Assembly (NCBI GenBank): GCA_002503595.1
Contig: DASC01000135.1
Location: 2,596 to 66,595, forward strand
Reading direction: 5' to 3'
DNA from: Candidatus Methanogaster sp. UBA203
Lineage (GTDB): Archaea; Halobacteriota; Methanosarcinia; Methanosarcinales; Methanogasteraceae
DNA length: 64,000 bases
Shown: in pieces, positions 3,005 through 61,565 of the stretch
Layout of the letters: every line of letters starts with the position of its first letter
Position numbering within the stretch: position 1 is the stretch's first letter
Notes under the pieces: generated by a model
Told to the model about the DNA's origin: nothing
The model's input: the letters and a program-made list of their open reading frames with translations, nothing else
The model's database searches: none
Made by a program: the position numbers and the translations under genes

Positions 3005-4393
3005 ATGATGAGTGATAATATCTCGGAGGTCATCCCGGTAAAAAACGAGGAAGCGAAGATTATGCAGTGCCTTGAAGCGGTCTTCTCTCAATCCCTCAAG
3101 CCGCATGAGGTGCTCGTGGTCGATGGACATTCGACTGATCGGACGGTGGAGCGGGCGAGGGAGTTTCCGGCCAGGGTGGTTTATGAGGATTATGGAACAG
3201 TTGGTGGAGCGCGGCAGGTCGGGGTTTTGAGTGCAGAGAGTGGGATTGTGGCTTTTACGGATGCTGATTGCGTTCCTGAGAAAAATTGGTTAGAAGATGT
3301 CGTAAAGGAATTTGATGAGGGTATTGTCGGTGTGGGGTGTGGGATAAAAAATGATGATGACCTGGTAGCTATATCAGTAGTAGTTCCGGTATACAATGGT
3401 GAGAAAACGATAAAGAAGACAATAGAAGCGTTGCTATCGCAAAAAACAGAAAAAAAATACGAAATTATCATTGTCGACGACGGTTCTACAGATAATACCC
3501 CCAACATTATTAAAAAATATCCCATAAAAACAATCACTCAAAAAAATGCAGGGCCCGCAGCAGCGAGAAATATCGGTTGGAAAGCCTCGTCGGGAAAGAT
3601 AGTAGCATTTACAGACAGCGACTGTGTCCCCATTCCGGATTGGATCGAAGCAATAAGTAAACACTTCAATGACCCCGCTATAGGAGGAGTTGGCGGCACA
3701 TATAAGATGGAAAATATAGGAAACATTCTTGCAACCTATATCGGAGAAGATATAAAATTTAGGCATGACCGACTTGGAAAGGAAATAGAAGCAGTAGGAA
3801 CGTTCTCTGTCGCATTTCGGAAGAATTTACTCGAACGGGTTGGTGGATTTGATGAAACATATAAAAAGGCTACCGCGGAGGACTTTGATTTATGTTTTGC
3901 AATACGTAAAACAGGGCATAAAATAATATACGAGCCAAATGCGATTGTGGGTCATTATCACAAGGAAAGCTTTTTAAAATATATAAAGAGTCAGTTCTGG
4001 TTTTCAGTTTGGAGAATATATTTATATGATAAATATAAATGTATGGCAAAAGGTGATCGGTACACGCCAATAACAACATTAATCCAAGTACCGGTAACAT
4101 TGTTATTTTTATTGAGTTTAGTATTGGGTGTTTTTATCGAAAAATTATTTATAATATCGATATTTCTTGTAGGTGTTCTTCTTATGTTAACTATTCCATT
4201 TATAAGCTATGAGATACGAAAGAATCCATTGATTGCGGTAATAGGGGTATTTATGCAGTTTATTAGAAACATCATCTGGGCAGTTGGTTTTGTCGGTGGG
4301 TTGGTTAATTTGTTTTATTTAAAGTTTGAAAAATGCAAAAAAAGAAGACGTGGTAAAGAACATGTTATTAAGCTGGTGGATAGTACAACATGA
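3005..4393 (+). CDS. Family-2 glycosyltransferase: a truncated GT-A N-terminal half fused in frame to a complete GT2 with C-terminal TM helices
   Basis: There are two successive GT2 motif sets: VIPVKNEE..VVDGHSTDRT..FTDADC, then VVVPVYNGE..IVDDGSTDNT..FTDSDC..EDFDLC. The hydrophobic tail has 3-4 helices. The ATG at 3005 is preferred because it follows the upstream stop at 3001-3003. Confidence 0.8.
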   Translation: MMSDNISEVIPVKNEEAKIMQCLEAVFSQSLKPHEVLVVDGHSTDRTVERAREFPARVVYEDYGTVGGARQVGVLSAESGIVAFTDADCVPEKNWLEDVVKEFDEGIVGVGCGIKNDDDLVAISVVVPVYNGEKTIKKTIEALLSQKTEKKYEIIIVDDGSTDNTPNIIKKYPIKTITQKNAGPAAARNIGWKASSGKIVAFTDSDCVPIPDWIEAISKHFNDPAIGGVGGTYKMENIGNILATYIGEDIKFRHDRLGKEIEAVGTFSVAFRKNLLERVGGFDETYKKATAEDFDLCFAIRKTGHKIIYEPNAIVGHYHKESFLKYIKSQFWFSVWRIYLYDKYKCMAKGDRYTPITTLIQVPVTLLFLLSLVLGVFIEKLFIISIFLVGVLLMLTIPFISYEIRKNPLIAVIGVFMQFIRNIIWAVGFVGGLVNLFYLKFEKCKKRRRGKEHVIKLVDSTT

Positions 4394-4462
4394 GACTATG
4401 AAAATTATGATGGGTATAAATTGGAGGTTTTTGGTGATGGTAAATTTTGGGAGTGGAGTGCA

Positions 4463-5587
4463 ATGAACATTTGCATGCTATCCTCTGAATTCCCCCCCGA
4501 TCTCGGCGGTATAAGTACGTACGTCCATAATTTATCAAAAAAATTGATAGAACGGGGGCATACTGTCACAGTTATCACGCGGGGGACATACAGAAAAACA
4601 TATCAGGAAAAGATAGATGGTATCTCTGTACATCGTGTGCGGTTCATACCATCATATCCTTCTCCATTCAAGTTACATGGATTGTTCGTGAATAAATCAT
4701 TTAAGTTATTGGAACCAGATTTTGACGTAGTACACGTACATGGAACACTCGTGCCGGTCATCCATACATCATTGCCAGTCATATTTACCTCACATGGTAC
4801 TTCCAATAAGGATATTGACAATATGCCGATGAAAAGTTTTCACTTTTATGTTGTTAGTCTTATGCGCAGGCAATTATTTAATGCAGAAAAAACGATTGTA
4901 GGAAGTGCAGATGTAATTACTTCGGTGTCACATTCGTGTGCAAAAGAACTGAAAAAAGACCATGTAGTAAATAAAAAAATTACAGTTGTGAATAATGGTG
5001 TAGATAGTAACTTTTTCATTCCCATTGAAAATAATAAAAAAGAAAATTATATATTATATACTGGGAGATTGGAGACAAGAAAAGGATTGATTGATTTCAT
5101 TGAAAGTGCGAAATACGTATGTCGAAAATATGTTGATATTAAGTTTATCTTAACTGGTAAAGGCACGATTAAAAATTATCTGGAGCGAAGAATTGATAGT
5201 TTCGGTTTGAAAAAAAACTTCTGCTTTACCGGGTTTGTGGATAGGTCAATGCTTCTTGAATACTATCAAAATGCAGCTATTTATGTTCTCCCATCATATT
5301 ATGAAGGACTGCCCACAACTTTGCTCGAAGCGATGTCATGCGGAATACCCTCAATCGCGACAAATGTAGAGGGGAGTTCTGAAGTGATAATCGATGGTGA
5401 AACAGGTTTGTTAGTTCCTCCGAAAGATCCTGAGAAATTAGCAGAAGCAATAATAATGTTATTAGAGAATAAGGTGTTACGAAACAGATTGAAGATGAAC
5501 GCAAGAAAATATATTGTAGCTACTCATGATTGGGAGATTATAACAGACAGAATAGAAAAAGTGTATGAAAAATGTGTAACTAAATAG
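4463..5587 (+). CDS. GT-B glycosyltransferase (GT4/GT1 family)
   Basis: N-terminal SSEFPPDLGGISTYVHNL. The C-terminal EX7E motif is EGLPTTLLEAMSCGIPSIATNVEGSSEVI. The ATG at 4463 is preferred over the track's upstream alternative start at 4421. Confidence 0.8.
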   Translation: MNICMLSSEFPPDLGGISTYVHNLSKKLIERGHTVTVITRGTYRKTYQEKIDGISVHRVRFIPSYPSPFKLHGLFVNKSFKLLEPDFDVVHVHGTLVPVIHTSLPVIFTSHGTSNKDIDNMPMKSFHFYVVSLMRRQLFNAEKTIVGSADVITSVSHSCAKELKKDHVVNKKITVVNNGVDSNFFIPIENNKKENYILYTGRLETRKGLIDFIESAKYVCRKYVDIKFILTGKGTIKNYLERRIDSFGLKKNFCFTGFVDRSMLLEYYQNAAIYVLPSYYEGLPTTLLEAMSCGIPSIATNVEGSSEVIIDGETGLLVPPKDPEKLAEAIIMLLENKVLRNRLKMNARKYIVATHDWEIITDRIEKVYEKCVTK

Positions 5588-5648
5588 TAGTAAAAATATA
5601 ACATGAGCCGGATAATTTTGTCGCAAAATCTAAAAGAAGATCGTATCG

Positions 5649-7562
5649 ATGAGCATGTCCGGGTGGCGTAAAGTAGGTGATAAGATGGAATTCGCGAAGT
5701 TTGGTGGCGAGAACAGAATCATTAAAATCGTATCCACCATCGCTTTTATTTTTATCGCAATATCTTTAGATATAATTGCGAAAACTTCTCCAACTGTTGG
5801 CTACGAAGTATCAATTTATAACGCCTACCCCTCCTACTTTTGGTTTTTAGTTATAGCTAGTATTGCTTGTGGCATTGGGATACTGTTGTACCAGGCTTTT
5901 GCTCAAGAAAAATCCCGATGGTGGGTTCTTGGACTTGTGATAATTATCTTAGTCAACACCATTTTTCTGCTCATGCCTGAGTTTAGAGGGTATTCCTTCT
6001 ATGCGCGAGGGGAGGACACACTCACACACGCCGGATACATCAGAGATATTCTAAATACTGGGCATGTAGGTGAAAGCAATTACTATCCAATCGAGCACAT
6101 ATTGGGTACAAACTTAATCCAAGTATCTGGAATATCGCTAGAAGATGTTTCTGCTCTATTTTTCGTCCTTTTTTCTGGAATGTATATTATTACTATATAT
6201 CCTTTGGCCAAAAGCACTAGTAAGCACTCGGGTCAAGTTCTATTAATAGTTGCTTTCGCCTCACCTTTAATATACAGTTTTTTTCATGTAAACATTTCTC
6301 CCAATATTTTTTCTTTGTTTATGCTACCATGTTTGTTGTATTTTTATCATAAAAGAGAGTTAATCCCATCAAATCGCATGGAAAATACTATTGCGGTGCT
6401 TATATTGGCGTTTTGCATTGTTTTTTTCCATGCCGTTACCACACTCTTCACCATAATTGTTTTTTTTGTATTTGGGCTTGCTTATGCTCTGTACTCCAAT
6501 TTTATTGTCCGCAGACTATCTGAGCATAGGCAATATGGAATTGTCGGTAAGAATTTTCTTAGAATAACTTTTATCCTGTTTATAGCTTTTTTCATGTGGT
6601 ATTTCTCGTACTCATCTATCTGCAATAGTTTCAGAAGAGTTGCCGACTGGTTAATCTATCAGATTGGCACTCCTTTGTTCGATGCACAACTTGAAACATT
6701 GAGAGAAACTGGACCTACATGGTCTCAAACTTTTGAACTTTTTGTGAATAGGTATGGCGCTATTTTTTTATTGTTGCTACTTTCGAGTATATGTTGTATA
6801 TATGTGATTAGGAAAAGTTTGTCAAAAGCACATAATATAGGACCCATGATGTTTACATACGCAATTCAATTCACGATTGCTCTTTTCATTAGTGTTATAA
6901 TGCTATTTGGTTATTTTTTCGAATATAATCCCGTCAGAGTTTTTAGGCTTCCTTTACTAATGGGTACAATTCTTAGTGGGTTGGTGGTTTATGATTTCGT
7001 TAGCGGATATACTAGGAAGAAGTCTAATAAGAGAAACAAGTTGCGCCAAAGGTTATTCATAATAGTAATTTGGATGACCATAATGGTCATGGTTACGCTA
7101 AGTTTTGGGAGTGTTTATAATTCACCGAGAGTGTATCTGCCAAATTCTCAGACCACCTCAATGGACCTAGTTGGCACAGAATGGCTGGATAAATCGAAAA
7201 GTCCTGATATTCGCATAATTGTTAGTCGATGGTCAGCACATTCTCTGCACCGATTCGAAGATTATAATTTTGGAATAGATTCCTCCCCTACCGTCAAAGT
7301 AGGAATAATCCACGAATATCTTCCTTCGCACTTTGGTTATGGTGGGAATAGCTCAGTTGTAGAATCTTTAGGTTTTCGAGATATGTATGTAGTCATCTTC
7401 CAAGTAGATAAAGTAATAACGATGTTTGTCCCAGAGAATGTTGGATCAAATATAGATCAGTGGACGGAAGAAGATTTTGCCAAGCTAAAAGTCGATCCTA
7501 CTGCAGTACATGTCTATGCTAATGGTGAATTTGATGTGTGGGGGGTATATGGCGAATTTTGA
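5649..7562 (+). CDS. Large polytopic membrane protein with a soluble C-terminal domain (glycan polymerase or GT-C-like role inferred from context only)
   Basis: 637 aa. More than 10 hydrophobic segments are followed by a hydrophilic tail of about 170 aa. No AglB WWDYG motif was seen. It lies within the glycosyltransferase cluster. Confidence 0.6.
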   Translation: MSMSGWRKVGDKMEFAKFGGENRIIKIVSTIAFIFIAISLDIIAKTSPTVGYEVSIYNAYPSYFWFLVIASIACGIGILLYQAFAQEKSRWWVLGLVIIILVNTIFLLMPEFRGYSFYARGEDTLTHAGYIRDILNTGHVGESNYYPIEHILGTNLIQVSGISLEDVSALFFVLFSGMYIITIYPLAKSTSKHSGQVLLIVAFASPLIYSFFHVNISPNIFSLFMLPCLLYFYHKRELIPSNRMENTIAVLILAFCIVFFHAVTTLFTIIVFFVFGLAYALYSNFIVRRLSEHRQYGIVGKNFLRITFILFIAFFMWYFSYSSICNSFRRVADWLIYQIGTPLFDAQLETLRETGPTWSQTFELFVNRYGAIFLLLLLSSICCIYVIRKSLSKAHNIGPMMFTYAIQFTIALFISVIMLFGYFFEYNPVRVFRLPLLMGTILSGLVVYDFVSGYTRKKSNKRNKLRQRLFIIVIWMTIMVMVTLSFGSVYNSPRVYLPNSQTTSMDLVGTEWLDKSKSPDIRIIVSRWSAHSLHRFEDYNFGIDSSPTVKVGIIHEYLPSHFGYGGNSSVVESLGFRDMYVVIFQVDKVITMFVPENVGSNIDQWTEEDFAKLKVDPTAVHVYANGEFDVWGVYGEF

Positions 7563-7573
7563 TTAACCTATTC

Positions 7574-9019
7574 GTACGTGTTTAGCCGCTCAGCCTCGCC
7601 CTCATCATCTGGAGACTGTTGAATCCCTGCTGTGCCCACGTTGCCAGCACTGTCATGATCCGCTCGTGAATTGACGTCCCTTTTCTATTACGCAGTGTTC
7701 CCACGATCTTCCGCTGGACGACATGCTCAGCGATTTGAGCCCTTTCTGCTCTGTTATTGGTCGACTCCACGCCTGGATGAGTGACAAACGTGAACCAGTA
7801 ATCAAAGCCATTTTCAATCTTGCCGATGAGCTTTTCCACCTTCTCGCTTCCGTATTCTCTCTTGAGCCATCGTTTGAGCGTTGCTTCCGCATTATGTGAC
7901 AGCTTCTCCCGAGTTTCGGGAGGAGGATCATTCTCCAGCGCGTCAATCAGTTTTTCATGGAGTCTCCCCGAGTGCTCTGTGTAAAGGAACCGCCTCCGCA
8001 ATCTTCTCGGTGAGATCCTTTGATTCTCGAAGTAGATGTGCCCAGCAACGCTGGATACGGTTTGTAAATTTGGCGTACGGTTTCCAGCCGTCACACACGA
8101 TCATTCCCTTGAATCTCCTTGTCAGAACCTCTACCAGGACTTTTGTGCCCCGACTCTTCCGAATCACGACAAAAGTCTCTGCGGGGGTGGTGAATGCCCA
8201 TATCCAGTGTTTCTTTCCCTGAACTCCGATTGAAGTTTCGTCCACATGCAGAATCGGAGCGTTACGAACTCGTTCCAGAATTGCGTCATATTCCGATTGA
8301 ACCGCATCAGCAGCACGGCGAGTGAGATCGAGTATCGTAGCAGGACTGATGTCCAATCCATAGTGCCGTATCAGCGCGTTCCGGATCTTCCGGTGTGGCA
8401 GCCTATCTTCATATTTCAGCAGTGCCGCCTGAGCAATCGTGTTGTTACCGAATATACCTTCTTTTGGACAACTCGAATCGGTTGCAACGACTTCTTTCTG
8501 GCAGTGTGGGCAGGTGTAATGTGCAATATTGTATTCGGTGACGATAACAGGCTGTGGTTCCGGAATCTCCTCGATAACCTTCGTTTCCACGCTGAACGGC
8601 TCACCAAGCTCAGTTCCAAAGTACAGGACACCGATCTTTCGTGACCTCCACCTGTCTATCAGGCTTTGCAGGAGGTCTCGTCACACCCTTATGTCCTTTC
8701 TTCTGCCCCGGCTTCTTCCACCGCCTTTATCTGGATCTTTTTTGCGCTTGCCGCCACGCTTCAGACTTGGTGGGGTATGTGCGTTCTCATACATAGCCAG
8801 TTGGCAACGAGCTCCTTTATGCATACCTTAAGCGACTCATTCTCATGCTTAAGTTGGTCAATCACGTCTCGAAGTTGTTTGATGATCTCGTCCTTGTCCA
8901 TCGTCCTCTTAGAAGACTATTACAGTAACAATATAGAAGTTTTGTGGTCGAGGATGGGTTTTAGATCGATCTGGAAGAACAGTGTGATGGGTGGTTATGT
9001 GGGGGAGCTAAACACATAC
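7574..9019 (-). mobile_element. IS66-family insertion sequence (single-ORF, ISBst12-like size), decayed
   Basis: Imperfect terminal inverted repeats are gtacgtgtttagc (7574-7586) and gctaaacacatac (9007-9019). It encloses a broken IS66-type transposase. It is a GC-rich element inside AT-rich flanks. No clear target duplication was found. Confidence 0.65.
7582..8901 (-). pseudogene. IS66-family transposase, disrupted by at least three frame changes
   Basis: The pieces are MDKDEIIKQLRD.. (from 8901), YENAHTPPSLKRGGKRKK..GHKGVTRPPAKPD (another frame), ORF 7955-8590 (CPHCQKE..HVDETS..DGWKPY..QRCWAHLLR) and ORF 7582-8094 (ESTNNRAERA..). Confidence 0.75.
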
Positions 9020-9094
9020 CAGTAAGTTAAATACGACGGAATCCTATTAATTAAAAAGAAATTAGATGGACTTGTAGACGAGTTTGGTGATAAA

Positions 9095-10075
9095 ATGGTA
9101 AATAAAAATCTATTCGTGATAGGCAGTGAGCATCTAAGGAAATGGGAACTCAAGTCATTTCTATGCGGGTTTATCTTTTTTAGCATATCTAGGAGGAACT
9201 TATGTGTAGATAATTTAAGATACGTAATTGCAAAGATGCGCAATAAGGGGGTAGATTACACTAAAGTAAAAGTAAATGATAATTTAATGTATATAAATTT
9301 TAAGGATAATGGAATCTCTAAGGAACTTTATATCCACCGGAAAAGAGAGCATTTTTCAACTGAATTCATAAAAGAAATTATTAGCGAAGACGAAATCATA
9401 ATTGATATAGGAGCTAATATTGGATACTATGCCTTATTAGAGTCTCAATTGGCAAATAAGGGAATGGTGTATGGTGTAGAGCCCATACCTTCAAATATGA
9501 ATTTATTGAATAGAAATATAGAATTGAATAATCGCAAGAATTTTTCTTCTTTTCAATGTGCTATAAGTGATAAAAATGGTGAAGCGAAAATGTATGTGTA
9601 TGACAAATGTAATTGGTGTTCCTTCACAAAAGATCCAGGCGGTAATATAATAGATGAAATCGAAGTTCAAACAATGACGTTAGATAAGTTTGTGGAGTCT
9701 TGTGTCTGTCAAGATCCTACGTTCATTCGAATGGATTCTGAAGGACATGAATATCAGATAATCAAAGGTGCAGCTAACATTTTTAAAAAAAATAATCCAC
9801 TAAAATTATGTATAGAATTGCACCCCCACTTGATGCCAAGGAAAAACATGGAAGAACTGATTAACAATCTAAAACAAAGTGGTTTCAAAGTGATGGCAAT
9901 ATTTTTAGATTCAACCCCCTATAACTATAAAAATATTAATACAATAAATAGATTGTGTAGAGCAATGAAAATTCCTGAATTTGGGTTTGCAGGCAATAGT
10001 TACGAAGATATATACAAACTATTAAAAGAGAGATGCTACGCACCCATTGTTTTTTTTGAAAGAGGAAAAGCATAA
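9095..10075 (+). CDS. FkbM-family SAM-dependent methyltransferase
   Basis: IIDIGANIGYYAL (SAM motif I), VYGVEP and FQCAISDKNGEAKMYV are present. The true start may be the ATG at 9236. The gene is very AT-rich. Confidence 0.7.
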   Translation: MVNKNLFVIGSEHLRKWELKSFLCGFIFFSISRRNLCVDNLRYVIAKMRNKGVDYTKVKVNDNLMYINFKDNGISKELYIHRKREHFSTEFIKEIISEDEIIIDIGANIGYYALLESQLANKGMVYGVEPIPSNMNLLNRNIELNNRKNFSSFQCAISDKNGEAKMYVYDKCNWCSFTKDPGGNIIDEIEVQTMTLDKFVESCVCQDPTFIRMDSEGHEYQIIKGAANIFKKNNPLKLCIELHPHLMPRKNMEELINNLKQSGFKVMAIFLDSTPYNYKNINTINRLCRAMKIPEFGFAGNSYEDIYKLLKERCYAPIVFFERGKA

Positions 10076-10094: not shown

Positions 10095-11345
10095 TCAAAC
10101 CCACCCATTCCTCCACACCATCACCCCCACGTACACGCTCCCAACCACATTCCCCACCACCCACGCATACCCCACCCCAATAACCCCAAATATAGTCATA
10201 AACACATACCCAAGCCCAACCACTAGCCCACAGATCACCCCACTCAGAACCACAATCCCACGCACATCCTTCTGAATCCTCTTGATCGCAAAATAAACAT
10301 AATTCACCCCGATAAACAAACTTGCTACAACCATCACCCGCAGCACCCCCAACCCACCTCCGGCATAATCCTCCCCGATCACTCCAAGCGCTACGCCACC
10401 GCAAACATACAGCACAGCCGCAGCCGGAACCAGCAGCGAAAAGATAACAATCAGCGACTTTACAACGGTTCTTTTCAATGCCGCACCATGGCTGCCCTCA
10501 ACAAAGAGCGATATGCTGATCGCATTCGGTATCATGAAGAGCAGAGACACTACTGCAAACGCGATATAATAATACGCCGCCTGCTCGGCCCCGAGCATGT
10601 TCAGAACCATAATCGGTATTATCATATTCGGAGCCGCCATGAAGATGCCCACAAGATAATTACCGGCAGAGAAATGAAATGCATCGTTCAGAAAGCCACG
10701 ATCAACCACAAGCATAGGTCTGATCCCTAAACTTATTAGAAAAACAACTGCAATCGAAAGCGCAAACAGAAACGATATTCCGACTGCGCTGAAGATGCCG
10801 ATTGCTCCGAGTGTGGTGAGGGGGATTAAGAAGATGACTCTTGAGCCGACGACAATGCTCTGAAAAAACTGAAACTCAGCTTTTCGTATTGCGACAAACG
10901 AGATTCCAGTTAACGCGGTCACAGAACTTGCTGCAAGGAAGATTAAAAAGAGTGATGCGTTCTGCGGCGATTTTAGAAGATCAAGTTCTGGCGAAACTGT
11001 ATCCACACCTGCGATGAATATCGTACCGAGTAGAACCGCGAAAAATGTTGTTACGAGTGCAGATGTACTGAATGTCCTACTCTTATCATTTGTCGGGAAG
11101 AATCTGATAACCGAGAAGTCCAAACCTAATCTGGAGAGTGAGACGAGCAGAGCCATTAAGGAGATGAGCGCAGCTGCGATGCCAAAGTCTTCCTTCAGAT
11201 ATAACTTTGCCGCAAGCATCCAGAAGATGAAGCCGAAGCCTGCGCTTGATATGTGTGTGAGCACGATGAATAGAGAGTTTCTGAGGAGATGGTCATGGAA
11301 GCAGTGGTTCATCTCTGCTCTGGTTTTTGGCATTCTGATTTTCAT
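10095..11345 (-). CDS. Polysaccharide/oligosaccharide flippase (Wzx-like, MOP superfamily)
   Basis: 416 aa, hydrophobic throughout with about 12-14 helices. Its position in the glycan cluster fits a flippase. Confidence 0.7.
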   Translation of the reverse strand: MKIRMPKTRAEMNHCFHDHLLRNSLFIVLTHISSAGFGFIFWMLAAKLYLKEDFGIAAALISLMALLVSLSRLGLDFSVIRFFPTNDKSRTFSTSALVTTFFAVLLGTIFIAGVDTVSPELDLLKSPQNASLFLIFLAASSVTALTGISFVAIRKAEFQFFQSIVVGSRVIFLIPLTTLGAIGIFSAVGISFLFALSIAVVFLISLGIRPMLVVDRGFLNDAFHFSAGNYLVGIFMAAPNMIIPIMVLNMLGAEQAAYYYIAFAVVSLLFMIPNAISISLFVEGSHGAALKRTVVKSLIVIFSLLVPAAAVLYVCGGVALGVIGEDYAGGGLGVLRVMVVASLFIGVNYVYFAIKRIQKDVRGIVVLSGVICGLVVGLGYVFMTIFGVIGVGYAWVVGNVVGSVYVGVMVWRNGWV

Positions 11346-18562: not shown

Positions 18563-18981
18563 GTCAGTAGCCTCCGTATCTAATCATCATGAGATGCGGC
18601 AAGGGAAAATGCCCCCACTCCCCCCCACACTTATCTCATGATAATAATGATTATGACATTCATAGTATAAAAAGTTAACGGTCACGCGTCATGTCAGCTA
18701 AAACCCCGTGTCGCGTCAGATAAAGCCCCGACCGTCGTCAGGTAGACGCGTCGCTACCGGTTTTGACGTGCCAGACATCATCCCGATTCAGGTTGTGGCA
18801 GGCAACAGACGCAATCCTGCACAGACACGATCCCGCCGTCTGCCGAGATGGACGATCTGAAAAGAGGCAGCTATCAAGAGCGAACGTGCGGTCAAGCCGC
18901 TGCAAGCGCATCACCTGGATCTGGTGTGTGGTTTGAAGATCAGGGATCGAGGATAAACCTCAAAAAAGCGTAACTACTCAT

Positions 18982-19152
18982 GGGCACTGTCTGAAAAGCC
19001 AGTGATTTATCACCGCGGAATACGAAGTATCGCCGAAGGCCGAACGCGGAGGGCACAGAGTTTCGAGACTGTATAAGTCCTCTGCGTGGCTTTGCGCACT
19101 CTGTGGTAGAATCTAAGGGCGTGGCGATATCACTGGAAAAATCGAGAGTGCC
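18982..19152 (+). repeat. MITE-like repeat, copy A (about 171 bp)
   Basis: It aligns along its length with 61394-61565. Shared elements are atttatcaccgcggaatacgaagtatcgccgaagg, the triple motif ctctgcgtgg-ctttgcgca-ctctgtggt, and the termini ggcactgtc / gagagtgcc. Confidence 0.75.
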
Positions 19153-19595: not shown

Positions 19596-19885
19596 TCTTC
19601 AAACCCACCCCTCCTCCCTCCACACCATCACCCCAACGCACACGCACACGCACCCAACCCCATTCGCAACTACCCACGCATATCCAACCCCAACGACCCC
19701 AAACATCGTCATGAACAGATACCCCAATCCAACCAATGACACAAAAATCACCCCGTTCAGAACCACAATCCCCTTAACATCCTTCTGCACCCACTTGATC
19801 GCAAAATAAACATAATTCACCCCGACAAATAAACTTGCAACCACCATCGCCCGCAGCACTTCCACCCCGCCAGCAGCATAATCCG
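19596..19885 (-). pseudogene. Diverged 3' fragment of a second Wzx-type flippase gene
   Basis: VLRAMVVASLFVGVNYVYFAIKWVQKDVKGIVVLNGVI..GVGYAWVV aligns with the C-terminus of the intact flippase (VLRVMVVASLFIGVNYVYFAIKRIQKDVRGIVVLSGVI..GVGYAWVV). Homology stops at a repeat-derived sequence, gcgcactctgcggt. Confidence 0.75.
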
Positions 19886-20072
19886 CGCCCCTTCGCGCAC
19901 TCTGCGGTTATATTCTGTGTTTGGTTACAGTAATGCCTGCCCTTCGGGCATGGCATCGATAGAATCGAATCCTTCTGGGATTCTATTATGCCTCATGTCC
20001 TGGATAGTTCCTGCATAGTGAAGTCCCACGATAGTGGTTTAGGTACCTGAGTAGTTACAAAAAAGCTTAACA

Positions 20073-29562: not shown

Positions 29563-30258
29563 TTAAGGATTACGAGAAGATGCGGATTCAGCAAGAGCGC
29601 GTTCATTATCCATCCTGATAATGAGCAGCGAGAGGTATAATAATGTGTATGCAAATATATTAATGAGGAGCGTGTACACGATGATCGGGCTATCGATACC
29701 GCCGCCTTCGCCTGTCAGGTCGGGATGATACAACGGAGGCCAGAGTTTGATCGATAGGTAACTCATCGGCACAGCGACAAATGCGATGATTCCGAATACT
29801 GCCGATGAGCGTGCACGGCTCTCTGACCCCATCGCACGCCGTAGCGTCACATACGCTACATACAGCAAAAACAAGATGAGTTGAAAGGTAAGGCGTGGAG
29901 TCCAGTCCCAGTAGATACCCCATGCTCCCTTTGCCCACATCATACCGCTCACGAGATTGAGAGCGCAGAAAACAGCGCCAATTTCAGCAGAAGATGCTGC
30001 AAGCACATCCCATGTTATATGAGAGGTTTGGAGATACCTGATGCTCGCTACGAATACCAGGAAGAACGCCAGATATGAGACCCATGCGAGCGGGACATGG
30101 AAATAGAATATCCTGTAACTCTGGAGGATGTTTTCTCGTTCGGCATCGCTGAGTTCAGGTGAGAGCGGTGGAATGATCGATGGGCTCGTGAAGACCATAT
30201 AGGTCGCCGCGATCAGGACTACAGCGGTTAGCAGGTAGAGTATCGTACGTTTATTCAT
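29563..30258 (-). CDS. ccmC: Cytochrome c maturation heme exporter subunit CcmC
   Basis: Trp-rich WWD motif WAKGAWGIYWDWTPR plus conserved His-containing helices. The start is at MNKRT (30258) or at 30279. Confidence 0.8.
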   Translation of the reverse strand: MNKRTILYLLTAVVLIAATYMVFTSPSIIPPLSPELSDAERENILQSYRIFYFHVPLAWVSYLAFFLVFVASIRYLQTSHITWDVLAASSAEIGAVFCALNLVSGMMWAKGAWGIYWDWTPRLTFQLILFLLYVAYVTLRRAMGSESRARSSAVFGIIAFVAVPMSYLSIKLWPPLYHPDLTGEGGGIDSPIIVYTLLINIFAYTLLYLSLLIIRMDNERALAESASSRNP

Positions 30259-30260
30259 AT

Positions 30261-30479
30261 TTACAGGTAAGCCATCCATTCAGCCATCGAGTACTCGAAT
30301 CCTTCCATCAATTCGAAATCGACCTCCCCGAGCGGCAGGGGTTCGTTCTTGCACGATCTTGCAGTTCCACATTGTTTGTAGCATGCCATGCATGGTTCCA
30401 TGAAAGTTGGTACGGCACCGGATATATTAAACGCTTGGGTGCGGCGGCGAGTCGTGAACCACCATCCTGATAACAACAT
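30261..30479 (-). CDS. Hypothetical Cys-rich micro-protein, possibly translationally coupled to ccmC
   Basis: 72-aa ORF containing EPCMACYKQCGTARSC. Its TAA (30261-30263) lies 2 nt before the ccmC ATG (30256-30258). Confidence 0.25.
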   Translation of the reverse strand: MLLSGWWFTTRRRTQAFNISGAVPTFMEPCMACYKQCGTARSCKNEPLPLGEVDFELMEGFEYSMAEWMAYL

Positions 30480-30508
30480 TTATATACCACTACGCAATAA
30501 TAATCACC

Positions 30509-30637
30509 ATGGACGATATTGATCAGTCACTGGTCTACTTCGTATGCGGTGTGTGTGGGTTCACATTCCAGTCAGATCCGAACTTCATTCCGGTCACCTG
30601 TCCGCAGTGTGGGAGCGAGAATGTCGCGCGGACCTGA
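30509..30637 (+). CDS. Zinc-ribbon micro-protein (42 aa)
   Basis: MDDIDQSLVYFVCGVCGFTFQSDPNFIPVTCPQCGSENVART has CxxC-x17-CxxC. It is too short for the ORF track. Confidence 0.4.
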   Translation: MDDIDQSLVYFVCGVCGFTFQSDPNFIPVTCPQCGSENVART

Positions 30638-30652
30638 AATAGAACTATAAAC

Positions 30653-31789
30653 TCACGCAGGCGGCTTTGCGACCAGATGCACATCCCCGGTTCCGAGATT
30701 GATCGGCTGCCCGACGATTACGTTCTCGGTGACACCGCTTAACTCATCGATATCGCCGCGTATGCCGGCATCGATCAGGTGATTCACAGTCACCTCGAAT
30801 GCAGCCCGAGCGAGGATGCTTGCCTTCTCGCCGGATAGCCCGTGCCTTCCGATCTGCTTGACCTCTCCGTCGCAGGTCATCATGTCTGCTGCAAGCATGA
30901 TATGTTTTACATCCACGTTTAACCCCTGTTCGCGCAGTGTCTCCATGATCTCCTTAATGATCGAGTTTCTGGCAGCCTCGATCCCGAAGACCTCGCACAT
31001 CTCGCCTGGGTGGTTGGAGGTCGTTCGGGCAGGGTCGACACCCTCGATATCGAGAACCTCCTGAAGTGCCGTGCCTTCGGTATAGAGCACGTATTCAGAA
31101 CCTTCCTTCTGTATAACCACCCTTGGGATCGCCTCAATGCCTTTGATCAATACTTTCTTAAGATTCCTGCCCAACTGCACCAGGGAACCAAGATTGGACT
31201 CCTTAGGACTGAGTATGAGCGTGTACCCCTCCACCTCGATCGGGATCTTTAGTTTGGCTTCGAGTTTTTCGATGATGTCGGATAGTGTCAGGTCTCGTTC
31301 ATACAGGGTATCCTCATCCACTTCGATTAAGATCACCAAATTTGCGCGGTCTGTAATAATTCCACCCAGATCGGGGATTGTCGTCTTCTGGACCTCCCAT
31401 GCGACAGCCTGAGCTTTCTTCTTGCTTGCGCCGTCTCTCAGGTACACGGCCATCACCGGTGTACTCGGGTTCTTTCGCGCATCAAGGATCTCGATCAATC
31501 TCGGGAGCCCGAGCGTTACGTTGATCTCGGCGACACCGGCATAATGAAAGGTACGCATCGTCATCTGTGTACCGGGTTCGCCTATCGACTGCGCGGCGAC
31601 CACGCCGACCGGATCGCACGGCTCGATGCAAGCAGCCGCATACCCGCCCATAACATGGTCGATGATATCATCCAGTTGTTTCCTGGTCGGTTTGACTTCC
31701 AGGAGTTCCCCTCGCAGGGTATCCTTGATCTTTGGCGGCAATGAGAGCACACTTACACTCTTCTCGATACTATCTGCCGTTACGGTCAT
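30653..31789 (-). CDS. rpoA2: DNA-directed RNA polymerase subunit A''
   Basis: 378 aa. [20 protein letters not shown] and the C-terminal [17 protein letters not shown] are present. The start overlaps the rpoA1 stop. Confidence 0.95.
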
Positions 31790-34419
31790 TCTGGTACCTC
31801 CATCACGTCCTTTACAATTCGCTGTATATGGCTACGATCGAAGCCGCGTGACGGGTCGACTCCGTCCTCGCCGTATTTTGCCTGCACGACCACGCCACGG
31901 GTATCCCTGACCGTACCGTCATGCTGCGCCTCCAGATCCTGAAGCGCATTCACCATCCTCCGCTGGAGATACCCTGACTGGGACGTCCTGACAGCAGTGT
32001 CCACGAGGCCCTCCCTGCCACCGATGGCGTGGAAGAAATACTCGACCGGAGAGAGCCCGCTCTTATATGATGCCTGTACAAATCCGTGCGCCTCTGCGCC
32101 GCGATCTCCTTTCTTGAAATGTGGAAGCGTTCTACCTGAGTACCCGCGCTGGATGCGGGCACCCCGCACCGACTGCTGTCCGACACACGCAGCCATCTGT
32201 GCAAGATTCAGCATCGAGCCCCTGGCTCCTGAAACCGCCATCGCAACCGCAGAGTTGTCGATACCAAGATGCAATCCAGCCTTGTCGCCAGCCTCGTCAC
32301 GAACCTTTCCGAGAATCTGCATGATCCGAAGCTCAAGCGTCTCTTCACTGGTTCGCCCGGGCAGCGACTCAAGCTCGTTATGTTCATACTTGTCGATCAG
32401 ACTTGCGATACTCTCCTTTCCGTACATCGCGTCCTTATTGATCTCCTGTATCTGTTTGACCGCCTCTTTCGGGATATCCTCATCATCAATTCCGAAACTG
32501 AATCCGTGATACATGATGCCCCGGATCGCAAGGTTTGTCATATTGTCAATAAACGCAGCCCCGGCAGCAGGTCCGAACTCCCTGATAACCTTGTTTACGA
32601 TCTTTCCCTTGAACGCGCCGATCGATTTCTCATCGATGGTTCCACAAAGCAGTTCTCCATTCTTTATGACGACGTAAGCATCGTTCGGGCAGTTCTCCTT
32701 CTTGCATTCGGCACATTCCTCGCATATCTCTGCCTTGTATTCGAGGTTTAACCCTTCCGGTAGAATCTGGCTGAATATCTGCTTTCCGGTCCAGTAGGGG
32801 GTGCCATCCCCGATATGGTCCGGCGGCGGCAGGTCGCGCACCCCGGATTTCCGCAGGATCTCGAGTGCGCTGTTCTTGTCGATCGCTTTCTCACGCGTCA
32901 ACAGGAACATGCCTGTTATGTGATCGTGTATCCCGCCGATGATCGGACCGCCAAATCTTGGCGAGAGGATGTTCTCCTGAACCCGCATCAGTATCGCCGC
33001 CTCTGCCCTTGCCTCCTCGTTCTGCTGTACATGGAGATTCATCTCATCGCCATCGAAATCAGCGTTGTATGGCGGGCAGACCGCTGGATTTAACCGGAAC
33101 GTCTTTCCGGGCATGACCTTGACCTCGTGCGCCATGATACTCATCTTGTGAAGCGACGGCTGCCTGTTGAAGAGCACAATGTCGCCATCCTTGAGATGCC
33201 GATCCACGAACCATCCGTATTCGAGCATCTCCGCGATCTCCTCGCAGGTTGTATCGCTGATTCGCAGTCTGTGCCCATCTGTCCGGACCACGTAGTTCGC
33301 GCCCGGGTGATTGGTCGGACCGCGGCGCACATACTCCTTGAGTTCCTCGATGTTTCTCGGCACAACCTTGAACGTGAGCGTCAGTTCTCTTGCAATCGCC
33401 TCAGGAATGCCGACCTCGTTGATCGACAGGTTGGGATCCGGCGAGATAACAGTCCTGCCGCTGAAATTGACACGCTTGCCAGAGAGACTGCCCCTGAACC
33501 GTCCTTCCTTCCCCTTCAGGCGCTGGGACAGGGTCTTTAAAGGTCTTCCGCTCCTGTGCCTTGCCGGAGGTATCCCTGATACGCTGTTGTCCATAAAAGT
33601 GGTTACATGGTACTGCAAGAGTTCCCAGAGATCCTCGATGATCAACTGCGGCGCGCCCGCTTCCTTATTCTCCTGGAACCTCTGGTTTATCCTGATAATA
33701 TCAACGAGTTTGTGTGTCAGATCGTCCTCGCTGCGCTGCCCTGTCTGGAGCGTGATCGACGGGCGCACAGTGACCGGAGGCACGGGCAGCACCGTCATGA
33801 TCATCCATTCAGGGCGCGCGTTACCTGGATCCATGCCAAAGACAGGGAGATCTTCATCCGGTATGTGCTCGAACCAGTTCCTGATATCGCTTGGAAGCAG
33901 TTTGTCCCCGGCCTCATAATACGTGGTAGGTTTTTCGTACGTGATCTTCAGTTGGTGCTCGCCGCAGTACGGGCACACTTCGACCTTGCTTGCCTCGCCA
34001 AAGACCTGTTCAACTATCGCATCGATGGTCTGCCCCTGACTCCTCCGAGCCGAGATATGCTCGATATACTCTTTCTTCCGCCCTGCATCCAGAAGCAACC
34101 GGCTGCAACTTCTGCACGTACTCCTGAGTAGATTCCGTATCTGCTTGGCAAACCCGACGTGCACACAGGGAGCCACCAGTTCTATGTGCCCAAAGTGACC
34201 CGGGCACTCCCCAGCCCTTCCGTTGCATGTTTTGCACCGCAATCCCGGATCGATGACTCCGAGTCTGGGATCCATGAGCCCCATATCAATCGGAAAACCA
34301 TCCTCATCATAAGTATCTGCCGTGATAATTCTGGTGACACTCATATTCCGGTATTCCCGCGGTGAGATCAAGCCGAATTTTATCCTTGAGATTTTCTTTG
34401 GAGCACTGATCTGTTTCAT
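31786..34419 (-). CDS. rpoA1: DNA-directed RNA polymerase subunit A'
   Basis: 877 aa. Zn motifs are [17 protein letters not shown], the catalytic motif is [14 protein letters not shown], and the bridge helix region is present. Confidence 0.95.
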
Positions 34420-34755
34420 TGTATACCAGTCTCTGATGTCTGTGGGATAAAGGTTTTGATTCGAAGGGGTTGTCGTGCCTTGTGGTGTTGACGCCCACGC
34501 ACGGAAGCAGGGTTTTTATGTGAGTGGGCACAACCCGATATTCCAGTGACAGAATAGCCGGCAGACTGGACTTTCACAGTGCCTGTGAGACGAACGTGAC
34601 ATCCTCTTCACAAATTCCTTTATATCGATGTAACATCATAATGATCATTACCACGTCCTTTTTTAAATCCGTTCGCGTGGGTGGGGCTGTGCAGCCCTCT
34701 TTCACCAGGGCTGCACACCTCAGGGCATCACCCCCTGATAATGCCATCCGCAAAT

Positions 34756-34945
34756 CATGAAACGGTATCGGAAAATCCAGTGAAATCACTATATCCTTAA
34801 ATTTTACCGCAGAGCACGCGGAGAACGAGAGAGGCACCAGAAAACCAAAGCGAGGATCGAAACGGTATCGAAACTCTGCGACCTCCGCGTTCTCCGCGGT
34901 GATAAATCACTTGATTTTTAGACAGTGTCCATGAAACGGTATCGG
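34756..34945 (-). repeat. MITE-like repeat, copy C (short variant, inverted), including flanking 16-nt perfect direct repeats
   Basis: catgaaacggtatcgg occurs at 34756-34771 and at 34930-34945. The interior (34772-34929) carries gacactgtctaaaaatcaagtgatttatcaccgcgg (reverse strand) and the ctc(t/c)g(c/t)g triple motif. Confidence 0.7.
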
Positions 34946-35126
34946 TCGACACGCGGGTCACGTACATGACTTGAATAGACCGTGATTATCAGGCCAAGTT
35001 GCACAGCAGCGGCACAGCCATTAACACAGGTTCCACCGGTTTTATCCACAACTCGGGCAATAAACCCGGGTTCATGGAATATTTCGTAACGCCGGATGAT
35101 GGCACCATAATGCTTGCGCGGAAGTT

Positions 35127-36446
35127 TTACCCTTCAACCATCATGCCAACCCAGTCGGGTGCGTTCACATGGCCCTCCGCGCCACCATCGCCGCCGCGCA
35201 ACATGCCAGTCACAGACTTTAGCACCTGAACCGATGTCGGATGCATCATCATGAAGAGATCGACACCAGCAAGCGCAAGCGCTAGTCCCGTCGTTATTTC
35301 CCAGATCGGTCCCCTGTACTCGCGGGGTCCCCAGTCCGAGTCCTCCTTGAGTGGCGAGACCGCCATCCACGACTCTCTTGCACCCCATGCGTTCGTGGTT
35401 CCTGACGACATCGGGAAGTTCAGTTCCGCATCCCCTATAAGCCCTGCGAGCCGGATGCGCTCGATGTTTGAGTATGCGTAATCGAGACCGTAGCCAAGCG
35501 CCGCGGTTGTCGGATCCATCACGATGTCACAACGCTTGATGCCGCACTGCTTCATCAGTTTGCGGTTGAGTTCCTTCTGCGCATTGATCTCGAGCTGCGT
35601 CCACGAGAGGATCGCGTGACCGTACTCCTTTGCCGCGGCTGCGATCCGCTGGTAGTCCATGTTTAGATTTGCTGAAGCGATCAGGCACCGCTCCCCTTCG
35701 GCAGCCTCTGCCGCCTTCTCAAGAACCTCGGGATCCTTATCAGGATTTCCTGAGCCCCCGATGATGAGCGGGACATCTACTGCCTGCAAGACATCCTCGA
35801 CCACCTTCGCCGCCTCCGATGCAGGCGTGTCCTTGATCGATGGATCGGTGCTTATCAGGTGGATCGTGACCATATCCGCGCCGAACTTCGAGACCACCTT
35901 CTTTGCCCACTCAGCCGGACTTTCGAGCACATCCTCGTAGTTCATGCGCACAGCGCGTGCCATTCCGATGGGCATGTCAAAGACATCGATCGAGACATAA
36001 TTCGGATGCGGCATCGGCGCATCAAAGTAGAACGGCAGCGCATGTTCGCCGCCAAGCGTAACCGTACTTTTGCGTGTGCCGCCGTCAGAGGATGTTGCAC
36101 CGAGCACAACCTCCTCGATCCCGTGCTTCCACTCAGAGACCGGGTCCACGTCAAACGATGCCGGAATCAACTCCTGCGGGATCCGGGACTGTACCTGGGA
36201 CGGCAGCGTCATCGGCTGCATGGCAGGAAGCATCTGCCCTGCCGGACAGCCCATCATGCCTGCGACGTTATTTAACCGCGCCGCGATCTGCGCGAGCTCA
36301 TATCCAACCACTTGCATCAGTTCCTGGCTGCCGCCTCCGCCGTCGAATTCGATCTCGATATCCCCCTCTATCGTAACACCTTTCAGTTCAAGCACGTTCT
36401 CGAGCATTTTGTTGAGATCGGATAGCGTGAGAGTGGTAGTTGTCAT
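35127..36446 (-). CDS. cdhD: Acetyl-CoA decarbonylase/synthase complex subunit delta (corrinoid Fe-S protein small subunit)
   Basis: 439 aa. [61 protein letters not shown] and [19 protein letters not shown] closely match what I recall of Methanosarcina CdhD. Confidence 0.9.
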
Positions 36447-36470
36447 GCGGATTTCAATGAGATTACAGGT

Positions 36471-36478
36471 TTATTAAA
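36471..36478 (-). promoter_or_regulatory. Candidate TATA box for cdhD (TTTAATAA on the minus strand)
   Basis: It lies about 28 nt upstream of the cdhD ATG, which would give a very short leader. Confidence 0.3.
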
Positions 36479-36676
36479 TGTTGCAGATTCCCAGGTTCAG
36501 CAGGGGCAGTCAACTCTTCGGAGATGGGGGCAAGAGTAGAAATACATCCAACCACTGCCACATTTGAAAGCGTACGCATTGGCTCTACACTCGCCAGAAA
36601 GAGCAAGCTTCGCAAACAGATCCGAAAAACCCCAATACCAGTTAGATGAAATGCGTAATTAGAAGGAGAAGCGATC

Positions 36677-36895
36677 ATGTCAACTGAAATTGCTGCCTAC
36701 GAAAATCGGCTAATTCGTGAAATCAAAGAGACTCTACAAGAATATCTGCCGAACCTGCTTCAGGTTGTCCGATTGTTTCATGAGAGTGTAGTGTTAAAGC
36801 CAGCAGAGGATAGCTTCCGCCAAGGCTGGAAGGAAACGATGGCAGGCGAAACACGACCAGTGTCTGAATTGTGGGATGGCATCGATGCCGAGTGA
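36677..36895 (+). CDS. Small conserved-looking protein, possibly an orphan antitoxin
   Basis: 72 aa, ending in GETRPVSELWDGIDAE. No toxin partner follows it. Confidence 0.3.
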   Translation: MSTEIAAYENRLIREIKETLQEYLPNLLQVVRLFHESVVLKPAEDSFRQGWKETMAGETRPVSELWDGIDAE

Positions 36896-37062
36896 GCCAG
36901 CCGAATCTACTTACATCCCATCCCACACCTCCGTCCTCGCTAATCCCGCCGCTTTACCTCCAGCCCGCGGATGCCCCCGAATTCATTTGGGTGTGGAGTG
37001 GTTGGGGCTTCAGGATGTACGTTGGGGTAACCTATTTGTTTGGGAGTCCCCTACCCCATACA

Positions 37063-53484: not shown

Positions 53485-53812
53485 CAAACTTTTCACAAAA
53501 GTTTGATCAAAAACTGCCCTTCGGGGTTATACACCCGTTTTTCACTCGCAAACTTTCCACAAAGCTTTGACGGTTCCGCTGGCGCTTCGCATTCAAAAAA
53601 TGGTCTCCGACCCGAAGGGCATTTCTTACTCGCAAACTTTTCACAAAAGTTTGATCAAAAACTGCCCTTCGGGGTTATACACCCGTTTTTCACTCGCAAA
53701 CTTTCCACAAAGCTTTGACGGTTCCGCTGGCGCTTCGCATTCAAAAAATGGTCTCCGACCCGAAGGGCAGTTTTTACTCGATTTTTTGTGAAAAAATCGT
53801 GTGAAAGAATCA
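53485..53812. repeat. Tandem repeat of 148-bp units (2 near-identical units plus a diverged hairpin tail), each unit made of two related half-units of about 74 bp
   Basis: caaacttttcacaaaagtttga starts at 53485 and again at 53633. The two units differ at only a few positions near 53620-53625. Perfect 9-bp/3-nt-loop hairpins are caaactttt-cac-aaaagtttg and cgatttttt-gtg-aaaaaatcg. Confidence 0.9.
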
Positions 53813-61393: not shown

Positions 61394-61565
61394 GACACTG
61401 TCTGAAAATCAAGTAATTTATCACCGCGGAATACGAAGTATCGCCGAAGGCGGAACGCGGAGGGGACAAGAGTTTCGGGGTCGTTTTCAACCCTCTGCGT
61501 GGCTCTGCGCACTCTGCGGTAGAATCTAAGGGCATGGCAATTTCAATAGAAAAATCGACAGTGTC
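61394..61565 (+). repeat. MITE-like repeat, copy B (about 172 bp)
   Basis: Termini are gacactgtc (61394-) and gacagtgtc (-61565), which form an inverted repeat. The interior is collinear with copy A, including ctctgcgtgg-ctctgcgca-ctctgcggt. Confidence 0.75.

Follow-up and report, generated by a model that had tools for sequence, protein, structure and literature searches.

A stand-alone rpoA1-rpoA2 pair behind a conserved promoter-like block in the ANME-2c archaea

The genes for the A' and A'' subunits of RNA polymerase (RNAP), rpoA1 and rpoA2, stand together as an isolated pair in a 64,000-nucleotide stretch of Candidatus Methanogaster sp. UBA203 (contig DASC01000135.1, positions 2,596 to 66,595), hereafter the window. 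The pair and its immediate surroundings comprise the following features:

35127-36446, minus strand: cdhD, the upstream neighbour, unrelated to transcription (Pfam CdhD, E = 2.9e-80)
34420-34460, minus strand: promoter-like block consisting of CAAAACCTTTATCCC (34444-34458, resembling a transcription factor B recognition element (BRE) and TATA box), N9-10 and AGAC(T/A)GGTATA(C/G)
31786-34419, minus strand: rpoA1, RNAP subunit A', 877 aa (Pfam RNA_pol_Rpb1 domains 1-5)
30653-31789, minus strand: rpoA2, subunit A'', 378 aa, without intein (TIGR02389, 474.7 bits against a cutoff of 420.65)
30638-30652, minus strand: T-rich spacer of 15 nt, GTTTATAGTTCTATTT, separating the convergent stops of rpoA2 and the micro-gene
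30509-30637, plus strand: micro-gene for a 42-aa CxxC...CxxC zinc ribbon, MDDIDQSLVYFVCGVCGFTFQSDPNFIPVTCPQCGSENVART, convergent to rpoA2
29563-30279, minus strand: cytochrome c assembly gene of the ccmC type, the downstream neighbour (Pfam Cytochrom_C_asm)

The identity of the pair is secure: RpoA' scores 1464 bits against the cutoff of 819 for the NCBIfam equivalog NF006336 and 1388 against 1042 for a second equivalog profile, its catalytic NADFDGD motif is intact at residue 452, and RpoA'' holds the remainder of Rpb1 domain 5 as defined in Pfam. The two genes are adjacent and overlap by an ATGA (31786-31789), with a GGAGG at 31797-31801, 8 nt 5' of the rpoA2 start. In comparisons with ANME-2c relatives the ratio of nonsynonymous to synonymous substitution rates (dN/dS) of rpoA1 is 0.04-0.11, with dS above 1 between lineages, which indicates strong purifying selection. 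T-runs also lie 3' of the rpoA2 stop in the other ANME-2c lineages, and the T-rich spacer is likely to be the termination zone of rpoA2.

A sequence-only reading of this DNA had held that the pair lacks its usual operon partners, that some 700 nt of non-coding DNA and then cdhD precede rpoA1, and that a convergent zinc-ribbon micro-gene and ccmC lie 3' of rpoA2. This description was borne out throughout. The upstream spacer measures 707 nt (34420-35126) and contains no credible open reading frame (ORF), and tblastn with nine partner proteins from Methanolobus (RpoB'', RpoB', Rpl30e, NusA, Rps12, Rps7, EF2, EF1a and Rps10) found none of them in the whole 64 kb.

How unusual this order is emerges from 80 archaeal loci, ranging from Thermococci to Asgard archaea, among the matches listed in an RpoA' scan of species-representative genomes; the figures below hold for these matches, which include no ANME-2c genome (best identity 72%) and thus serve as a comparison set only. 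In all 78 informative loci of these other archaea, rpoA1 is immediately preceded by rpoB' on the same strand, at a median distance of 22 nt, and rpl30e/nusA follow rpoA2 in 59 of 63. Set against them, the window presents the sole break of the rpoB'-rpoA1 junction. The sister families in Methanosarcinales are all canonical; in canonical relatives rpoB' and rpoA1 either overlap or are separated by no more than about 15 nt, and a Shine-Dalgarno-like GGAGG or GGTGA occurs there in most of the nine such relatives examined.

The break is not peculiar to one genome. In a protein search with RpoA', a tight clade stands out at 96, 88, 87, 86, 85 and 85% identity, and no other match exceeds 73%. The members of this clade are named Ca. 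Methanogaster sp., Ca. Methanogasteraceae archaeon or ANME-2 cluster archaeon in their sources, which places the window in ANME-2c (Methanogasteraceae, “Ca. Methanogaster”). A cluster labelled “ANME-2” at 70% identity proved to be Ca. Methanocomedens (ANME-2a) and has the canonical operon. Stand-alone rpoA1-rpoA2 pairs were found in five ANME-2c lineages (RpoA' 85-96% identical), each amid different genes, and rpoB, rpl30e, nusA, rps12, rps7 and the EF genes occur in none of the ANME-2c rpoA loci fetched. Neighbourhoods other than that of the window are as follows:

CstA, then rpoA1-rpoA2 (with intein), then a PUA gene
ArgJ (divergent), then rpoA1-rpoA2, then TIM (convergent)
Glycoside hydrolase (divergent), then rpoA1-rpoA2, then a radical SAM gene (convergent)
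PDDEXK-HTH (divergent), then rpoA1-rpoA2 (with intein), then a GHMP kinase (convergent)

The inteins, of the LAGLIDADG type, enlarge rpoA2 of two lineages to 893-898 aa (L086, 6473-9169; L091, 8842-11523; L092, 2708-5389) and are absent from the window and from loci L084, L085 and L087. Database labels in this group call for some care: the ANME-2c RpoA' NIA11417.1 appears in GenBank as “Nitrospiraceae bacterium” and the ANME-2c RpoB' entry 3889570 (PMC9012536, Fig01C) as “Desulfuromonadales sp. C00003094”. These bacterial labels on RNAP genes probably reflect mis-binned contigs from consortia.

Where, then, is the remainder of the operon? With queries from other lineages, ANME-2c RpoB' ranks below hundreds of closer clusters, and hence we used as query the RpoB' of ANME-2c COP2 from the alignment of Chadwick et al. 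2022 (PMC9012536, S1 Data, Fig01C.faa). The top matches formed a clade at 81-98% identity, to which “Ca. Methanogaster sp. ANME-2c ERB4” belongs, and the next ones fell to 76% or less, mirroring the pattern seen with RpoA'. The loci of this clade share the order rps8e-rpoH-rpoB''-rpoB' and fall into five contexts, in which rpoB' is followed by a convergent PUA gene, adenylosuccinate lyase, a 92-aa ORF with an AAA_15 gene, an aminotransferase or DMRL synthase, and in none of the five by rpoA1. The rpoB/rpoH genes, which the sequence-only reading had advised seeking elsewhere, are thus found in ANME-2c relatives, while the other half of that search, for rpl30e/nusA, did not locate them. In all ANME-2c rpoB loci (L094, L096-L098, L100, L101 and L120-L122) rps8e lies directly 5' of rpoH; it is near rpoH in one of the 80 other archaeal loci, there on the opposite strand. 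We note rps8e-rpoH as a second family-specific adjacency of ANME-2c.

These loci bear on the possibility that ANME-2c has a canonical rpoB-rpoA1-rpoA2 operon as well and that the stand-alone pair is a paralogue. The slightly long branch of RpoA' and the incompleteness of metagenome-assembled genomes (MAGs) would be compatible with this. However, unrelated genes and never rpoA1 stand behind rpoB' in the five contexts, which argues that the operon is truly split and that the pair in the window is not a second copy. Further, there is a single ANME-2c RpoA' clade among the top matches (the 70% cluster being ANME-2a), RpoB' shows the same divergence pattern as RpoA', and both the strong purifying selection and the presence of inteins in A'' of two lineages speak against a second copy. 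We therefore regard a paralogue as highly improbable; the pair in the window is most probably the orthologous rpoA and the sole rpoA copy.

The element that had drawn attention to a possible artefact lies in the spacer between cdhD and rpoA1. Three copies of a family resembling miniature inverted-repeat transposable elements (MITEs) occur in the window, and one of them, as had been noticed from the sequence, does precede rpoA1, accompanied by a stem-loop:

34772-34929 (approximate; with flanks 34756-34945), no strand assigned: MITE-like copy C, about 158 nt, in the cdhD-rpoA1 spacer 340-510 nt 5' of rpoA1
18978-19150 and 61394-61563: two further MITE-like copies
34688-34717, minus strand: stem-loop with a perfect 11-bp GC-rich stem and an 8-nt loop, in the cdhD-rpoA1 spacer

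Members of the family measure about 160-190 nt, have GRCACTGTC at their ends and carry long inverted repeats in their interior. Copy B is flanked by a 9-bp target duplication, CGTGATCGC, whereas copy C lies between perfect 16-nt direct repeats, CATGAAACGGTATCGG (34756-34771 and 34930-34945), and has a degenerate right end. Archaeal MITEs are non-autonomous; they end in inverted repeats and duplicate their target sites. The elements in the window resemble them in being short, non-coding and multi-copy, with both internal and terminal inverted repeats, a duplication and an empty site in the related locus L084; copy C differs in its atypically long flanking duplication and degenerate right end. 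A parent transposon or transposase of the family was not identified.

Two explanations involving this repeat had been offered: that the contig is chimeric, or that the operon was broken by rearrangement at the repeat. Both are contradicted by L084 (GCA_030625165.1), an independent assembly of a different species-level ANME-2c genome with about 93% nucleotide and 96% RpoA' identity. Collinearity between L084 and the window extends from the genes 5' of cdhD across rpoA1-rpoA2 and past ccmC and pheT, and at the same cdhD-rpoA1 junction L084 lacks exactly window positions 34771-34931, that is, the MITE-like element. Since L084 has the junction without the element, the insertion must be younger than the junction. 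The chimera, in which an assembler would have joined cdhD to rpoA1 through a multi-copy repeat, could draw on the presence of at least three copies in 64 kb and on two contigs that enter the repeat from opposite sides and end within it: L081, a JGI contig with the window's exact sequence, which confirms rpoA1-rpoA2-ccmC-pheT and ends at 34864, and L083, a Logan contig with cdhD that ends at 34901. Against this, besides the repeat-free junction of the collinear L084, a 65.7-kb ENA contig (L082, 99.995% identical and perhaps the window's own source) spans the whole region, and two more contigs of at least 50 kb share the arrangement; the junction downstream of rpoA2 is confirmed by L081, L082 and L084. 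The chance that the contig is chimeric is hence vanishingly small.

That a recent rearrangement at the MITE-like element tore rpoA1-rpoA2 from its operon in this genome might be suggested by the position of the repeat, 340-510 nt upstream of rpoA1, and by the transposases (L093) and reported “apparent genome rearrangements” (PMC9012536) of ANME-2c. Yet the L084 junction is intact and empty of the element, the split is common to lineages with rpoA1 dS above 1 and unrelated flanks, and sequence conservation starts 45 nt 5' of the ATG rather than at the repeat; we consider such an event extremely improbable. The repeat interrupts short-read assemblies but did not create this gene order. Thus, of the overall interpretation first given, the reality of the break and a promoter-like block at the predicted place stand, whereas both proposed causes fall: the split is an ancestral state that relatives have in common and that has nothing to do with the repeat, a finding named beforehand as one that would tell against it. 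It is possible that older rearrangements were driven by repeats in general. At the rpoB loci L093-L101 we saw no copy of the window's element, the screens there being for the promoter motif and by tblastn, with no search for the repeat family.

The conservation upstream of rpoA1 is confined to a short block. In an alignment of five ANME-2c neighbourhoods, the last ~45 nt 5' of rpoA1 are nearly invariant, with the motif block 88-100% identical, while identity drops to about 25%, as expected at random, in the 100 nt before that, producing a sharp boundary. The consensus up to the start codon is (A/G/T)CAAAACCTTTATCCC, N9-10, AGAC(A/T)GGTATA(G/C)(C)A, ATG. This block has been conserved although rpoA1 dS exceeds 1 between lineages. 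The motif occurs once in the window and otherwise only 5' of rpoA1 in all ANME-2c loci, with no occurrence in the rpoB loci. The centre of its A/T core lies ~27 nt 5' of the ATG, and neither the block nor the spacer 5' of ANME-2c rpoA1 contains a Shine-Dalgarno sequence. In leaderless archaeal mRNAs, as known from the transcriptomes of Haloferax, Sulfolobus and Methanosarcina, the TATA box lies about 26 nt before the start codon. The ANME-2c arrangement agrees with these in the distance of its TATA-like element and in lacking a Shine-Dalgarno sequence; it differs in that its start is predicted from the DNA and that TTTATCCC is an unusual variant. Hence, we infer that the block is a dedicated promoter of the BRE/TATA type that would yield a near-leaderless rpoA1-rpoA2 mRNA, with transcription predicted to start at about 34421-34424. 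The expectation that rpoA1 would need its own promoter within 34420-34500 thereby gains comparative support. While sequence and spacing fit a BRE/TATA element, TTTATCCC is a weak match to the TATA consensus; its strict conservation together with the flanking CAAAACC suggests something more than a generic promoter.

Taking these findings together, we propose, with a probability of roughly 85%, that the operon was broken on both sides of rpoA'-rpoA'' in the ancestor of Methanogasteraceae and has since persisted as two units, the rpoA unit with a dedicated promoter, the MITE-like element having arrived later. Under this proposal the ancestral cluster rpoH-rpoB''-rpoB'-rpoA'-rpoA''-rpl30e-nusA-rps12-rps7 would have given rise to one unit of rps8e-rpoH-rpoB''-rpoB' and a second of promoter-rpoA'-rpoA'', usually with the convergent zinc-ribbon micro-gene at its 3' end. 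Later rearrangements in these repeat-rich genomes would have repeatedly swapped the neighbours of both units, the survivors being those that left the promoter block of ~45 nt and the compact 3' end intact. TATA-binding protein and transcription factor B (TBP/TFB) would bind the conserved CAAAACCTTTATCCC element, and transcription would begin 1-5 nt before the ATG to give a leaderless mRNA; translation of A'' would be coupled through the ATGA overlap and the upstream GGAGG, and the T-rich spacer opposite the convergent micro-gene would be the site of termination. The MITE-like element, 340 nt 5' of rpoA1, is an incidental insertion that entered the cdhD-rpoA1 spacer later.

Several points weigh against this proposal. 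The new location of rpl30e-nusA-rps12-rps7 in ANME-2c was not found. The rpoA and rpoB loci lie on different contigs or MAGs that are linked by clade and name only, with no closed genome among them. RpoA' is 69-73% identical to that of other Methanosarcinales families, which among themselves show 72-78%, and this slightly higher divergence could hint at relaxed or altered constraint. As for the promoter, the TATA-like TTTATCCC departs from the usual TTTATATA, and both the transcription start and the leaderless status are predictions drawn from spacing. Finally, because rpoA1 and cdhD are on the same strand in the window's lineage, their co-transcription by read-through is possible.

As to what scattered the operon, a mobile or horizontally exchanged cassette consisting of promoter, rpoA1-rpoA2 and micro-gene would account for flanks that differ on both sides in every lineage and for the sharply conserved boundaries of the module. 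We found, however, no integrase, terminal repeats or target duplication bounding it; the RpoA' clade mirrors the RpoB' clade in identity terms; and the rpoH-rpoB unit and the ribosomal-protein clusters of L096 and L086 show the same turnover of neighbours. As these are equally scrambled, general scrambling of the genome suffices and no cassette is needed, and we hold a cassette to be very unlikely. In the ribosomal clusters in question, a TPP enzyme takes the place of rpl23 behind rpl3-rpl4 (L096, 2131-3851), and rpl18e-rpl13 is flanked by an uncharacterised gene and a KH protein rather than by rpoD/rps9 (L086, 1052-1854). This suggests that the informational operons of ANME-2c are fragmented genome-wide. 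Transposases lie near rpoB in L093, and “apparent genome rearrangements” have been noted in ANME-2c fosmid bins (Chadwick et al. 2022, PMC9012536). The most economical cause of the split is general scrambling of the genome in a lineage rich in repeats.

A trace of the initial event may survive in a pair of orthologous PUA/TGT_C2 genes with 72% identity: one (L092, 5566-6036, plus strand) lies beside rpoA2 and the micro-gene, and the other (L093, 2696-3226, minus strand) is convergent with rpoB' and overlaps its 3' end. It is possible that these are the footprint of an inversion that first separated B' from A'. A single-inversion model, with an intermediate in which rpoB' faces a convergent PUA gene, followed by the zinc-ribbon gene facing convergent A'' and A', fits the two adjacencies but is not demonstrated, neither locus having both, and was set aside.

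The zinc-ribbon micro-gene directly follows rpoA2 in four of five ANME-2c lineages, with 74-98% amino acid identity, and in all 11 ANME-2c-like JGI contigs. Searches of profile libraries with the micro-protein returned only generic zinc-ribbon matches below their cutoffs, the rpoB_arch profile reaching E = 0.2. Its product gives an ungapped alignment with the C-terminal zinc ribbon of RpoB' from about 45 loci (e.g., L024, 9763-9870), with the same CxxC-x14-CxxC spacing, 30-40% identity and a best E value of 1e-4 (tblastn), a resemblance that may be generic to zinc ribbons. We considered and rejected two candidate identities. It is not RNAP subunit P (RpoP/Rpo12), given the generic sub-cutoff profile matches and the occurrence of its relatives elsewhere in Methanosarcinales; nor is it a detached zinc ribbon of RpoB', since ANME-2c RpoB' is complete, retaining its own C-terminal ribbon, and the relatives are not near rpo genes. 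Rather, it belongs to a small family of 41-83-aa CPxCG proteins (represented by the window, L102 at 6001-6138, L112, L113 and L116-L118). In Methanohalobium and in JGI contigs with a GC content of ~0.45, the micro-gene (plus) forms a conserved trio with a DUF166 gene (minus) and a gene for a dNK-like kinase (plus), far from rpo genes, and its convergence with rpoA2 is found only in ANME-2c. Because its relatives reside in this DUF166/dNK locus elsewhere, the linkage to rpoA2 is an acquisition of ANME-2c, and given the very short spacer between the two genes, neutral hitch-hiking suffices to explain its persistence. A DUF166 orthologue also lies 2.5 kb 5' of rps8e-rpoH in the ANME-2c locus L100.

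A more far-reaching alternative is that the separation of A' and A'' amounts to functional rewiring and not to neutral scrambling, with CAAAACCTTTATCCC...GGTATAC as a strictly conserved, lineage-specific promoter/operator and the micro-protein as a new RNAP-associated factor or an antisense/termination partner of the rpoA transcript. If so, that element would place the stoichiometry of the large subunits under independent control, and the gene for a CPxCG micro-protein, captured from its ancestral DUF166-dNK locus, would have been kept in convergent orientation to rpoA'' across most of the family. We regard this as unlikely; a functional link between the micro-protein and RNAP is possible but unsupported.

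The remaining features of the region can be dealt with briefly. Upstream, cdhD is also the neighbour of rpoA1 in L084 and L082. Although the cdh subunits of Methanosarcina are encoded in a single operon, no further cdh gene was found beside cdhD or in the parts of the window examined with Pfam (about 25.3-46.4 kb); apparently, another ancestral operon has been broken in the window's lineage. The hairpin in the spacer, which had been placed at 34693-34729, exists but is slightly shifted, to 34688-34717. Its 71-nt fold has an energy of -34.5 kcal/mol (z = -3.5), a second hairpin of 6 bp precedes it, and it is conserved in L084, with no T-run after it; no part of 30000-37000 matched an Rfam family at E <= 1. 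Downstream of rpoA2, two promoter-like boxes were noted:

30479-30486, plus strand: TTTATATA, the micro-gene's own promoter-like box
30422-30431, minus strand: TTTAATATAT, a promoter-like (TATA-like) box 5' of a 46-aa Cys-rich ORF and ccmC

The Cys-rich ORF (30261-30401) overlaps the annotated start of ccmC and is preceded by the TTTAATATAT box, and 30261-30510 thus has the appearance of a compact divergent promoter region, with TTTATATA serving the micro-gene on the plus strand and TTTAATATAT the Cys-rich ORF on the minus strand; transcripts from both boxes would be leaderless. Elsewhere in the window we observed a 125-nt repeat in three copies at its start (1-1867), a 261-nt repeat pair with 80% identity (10116-10376 and 19629-19889), a perfect 148-nt tandem repeat with flanking inverted repeats (53485-53780), and islands of low GC content (0.32-0.36) at 4000-7000 and 9000-10000 against a background of about 0.5.

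How does the ANME-2c arrangement relate to those already described? An earlier study (PMC10833476) documents both the canonical str/L30e cluster and the way it has become dispersed in some genomes of Asgard archaea. Compared with the canonical order rpoH-rpoB-rpoA1-rpoA2-rpl30e-nusA-rps12-rps7-(fusA)-tuf-rps10, the genes themselves are the same in ANME-2c, rpoA1-rpoA2 are likewise adjacent and probably translationally coupled, and rpoH-rpoB''-rpoB' remain adjacent. The differences are that both junctions around rpoA1-rpoA2 are broken, that a predicted promoter of rpoA1's own takes the place of the Shine-Dalgarno sequence in a short rpoB'-rpoA1 spacer, and that rps8e has been joined to rpoH. 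Among Asgard archaea, the cluster is fully dispersed in Heimdallarchaeia PR6 and PM71, and in many genomes its core begins at rpoA1 (PMC10833476). They provide a precedent for an archaeal RNAP and ribosomal-protein cluster losing contiguity, including the separation of rpoB from rpoA1, but belong to another phylum; and whereas most of them still have rpoA1-rpoA2 joined to rpl30e-nusA, the ANME-2c pair is separated on both sides. Also unlike the Asgard case, the ANME-2c split defines a whole family inside Methanosarcinales. We found no earlier description of it in the literature. It is a real gene-order variant at the family level, apparently unreported until now, and not a new kind of system.

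The pair rpoB-rpoA1, which corresponds to the bacterial rpoB-rpoC, is among the most conserved gene adjacencies of prokaryotes. It is usually explained by the need for equal co-expression of both catalytic subunits. The split should be moderately surprising to specialists. On the practical side, it supplies a simple synteny marker for contigs of ANME-2c and a warning for binning and annotation, as an rpoA contig without rpoB is to be expected in this group; the repeat next to it is a case of an element that breaks assemblies without having caused the gene order. For the biology of an uncultured group, it offers a precise and testable candidate promoter. It also constitutes a natural experiment on the co-expression explanation: a whole family of environmentally important methane oxidisers in which the two genes have been uncoupled, each half keeping its boundaries through many rearrangements.

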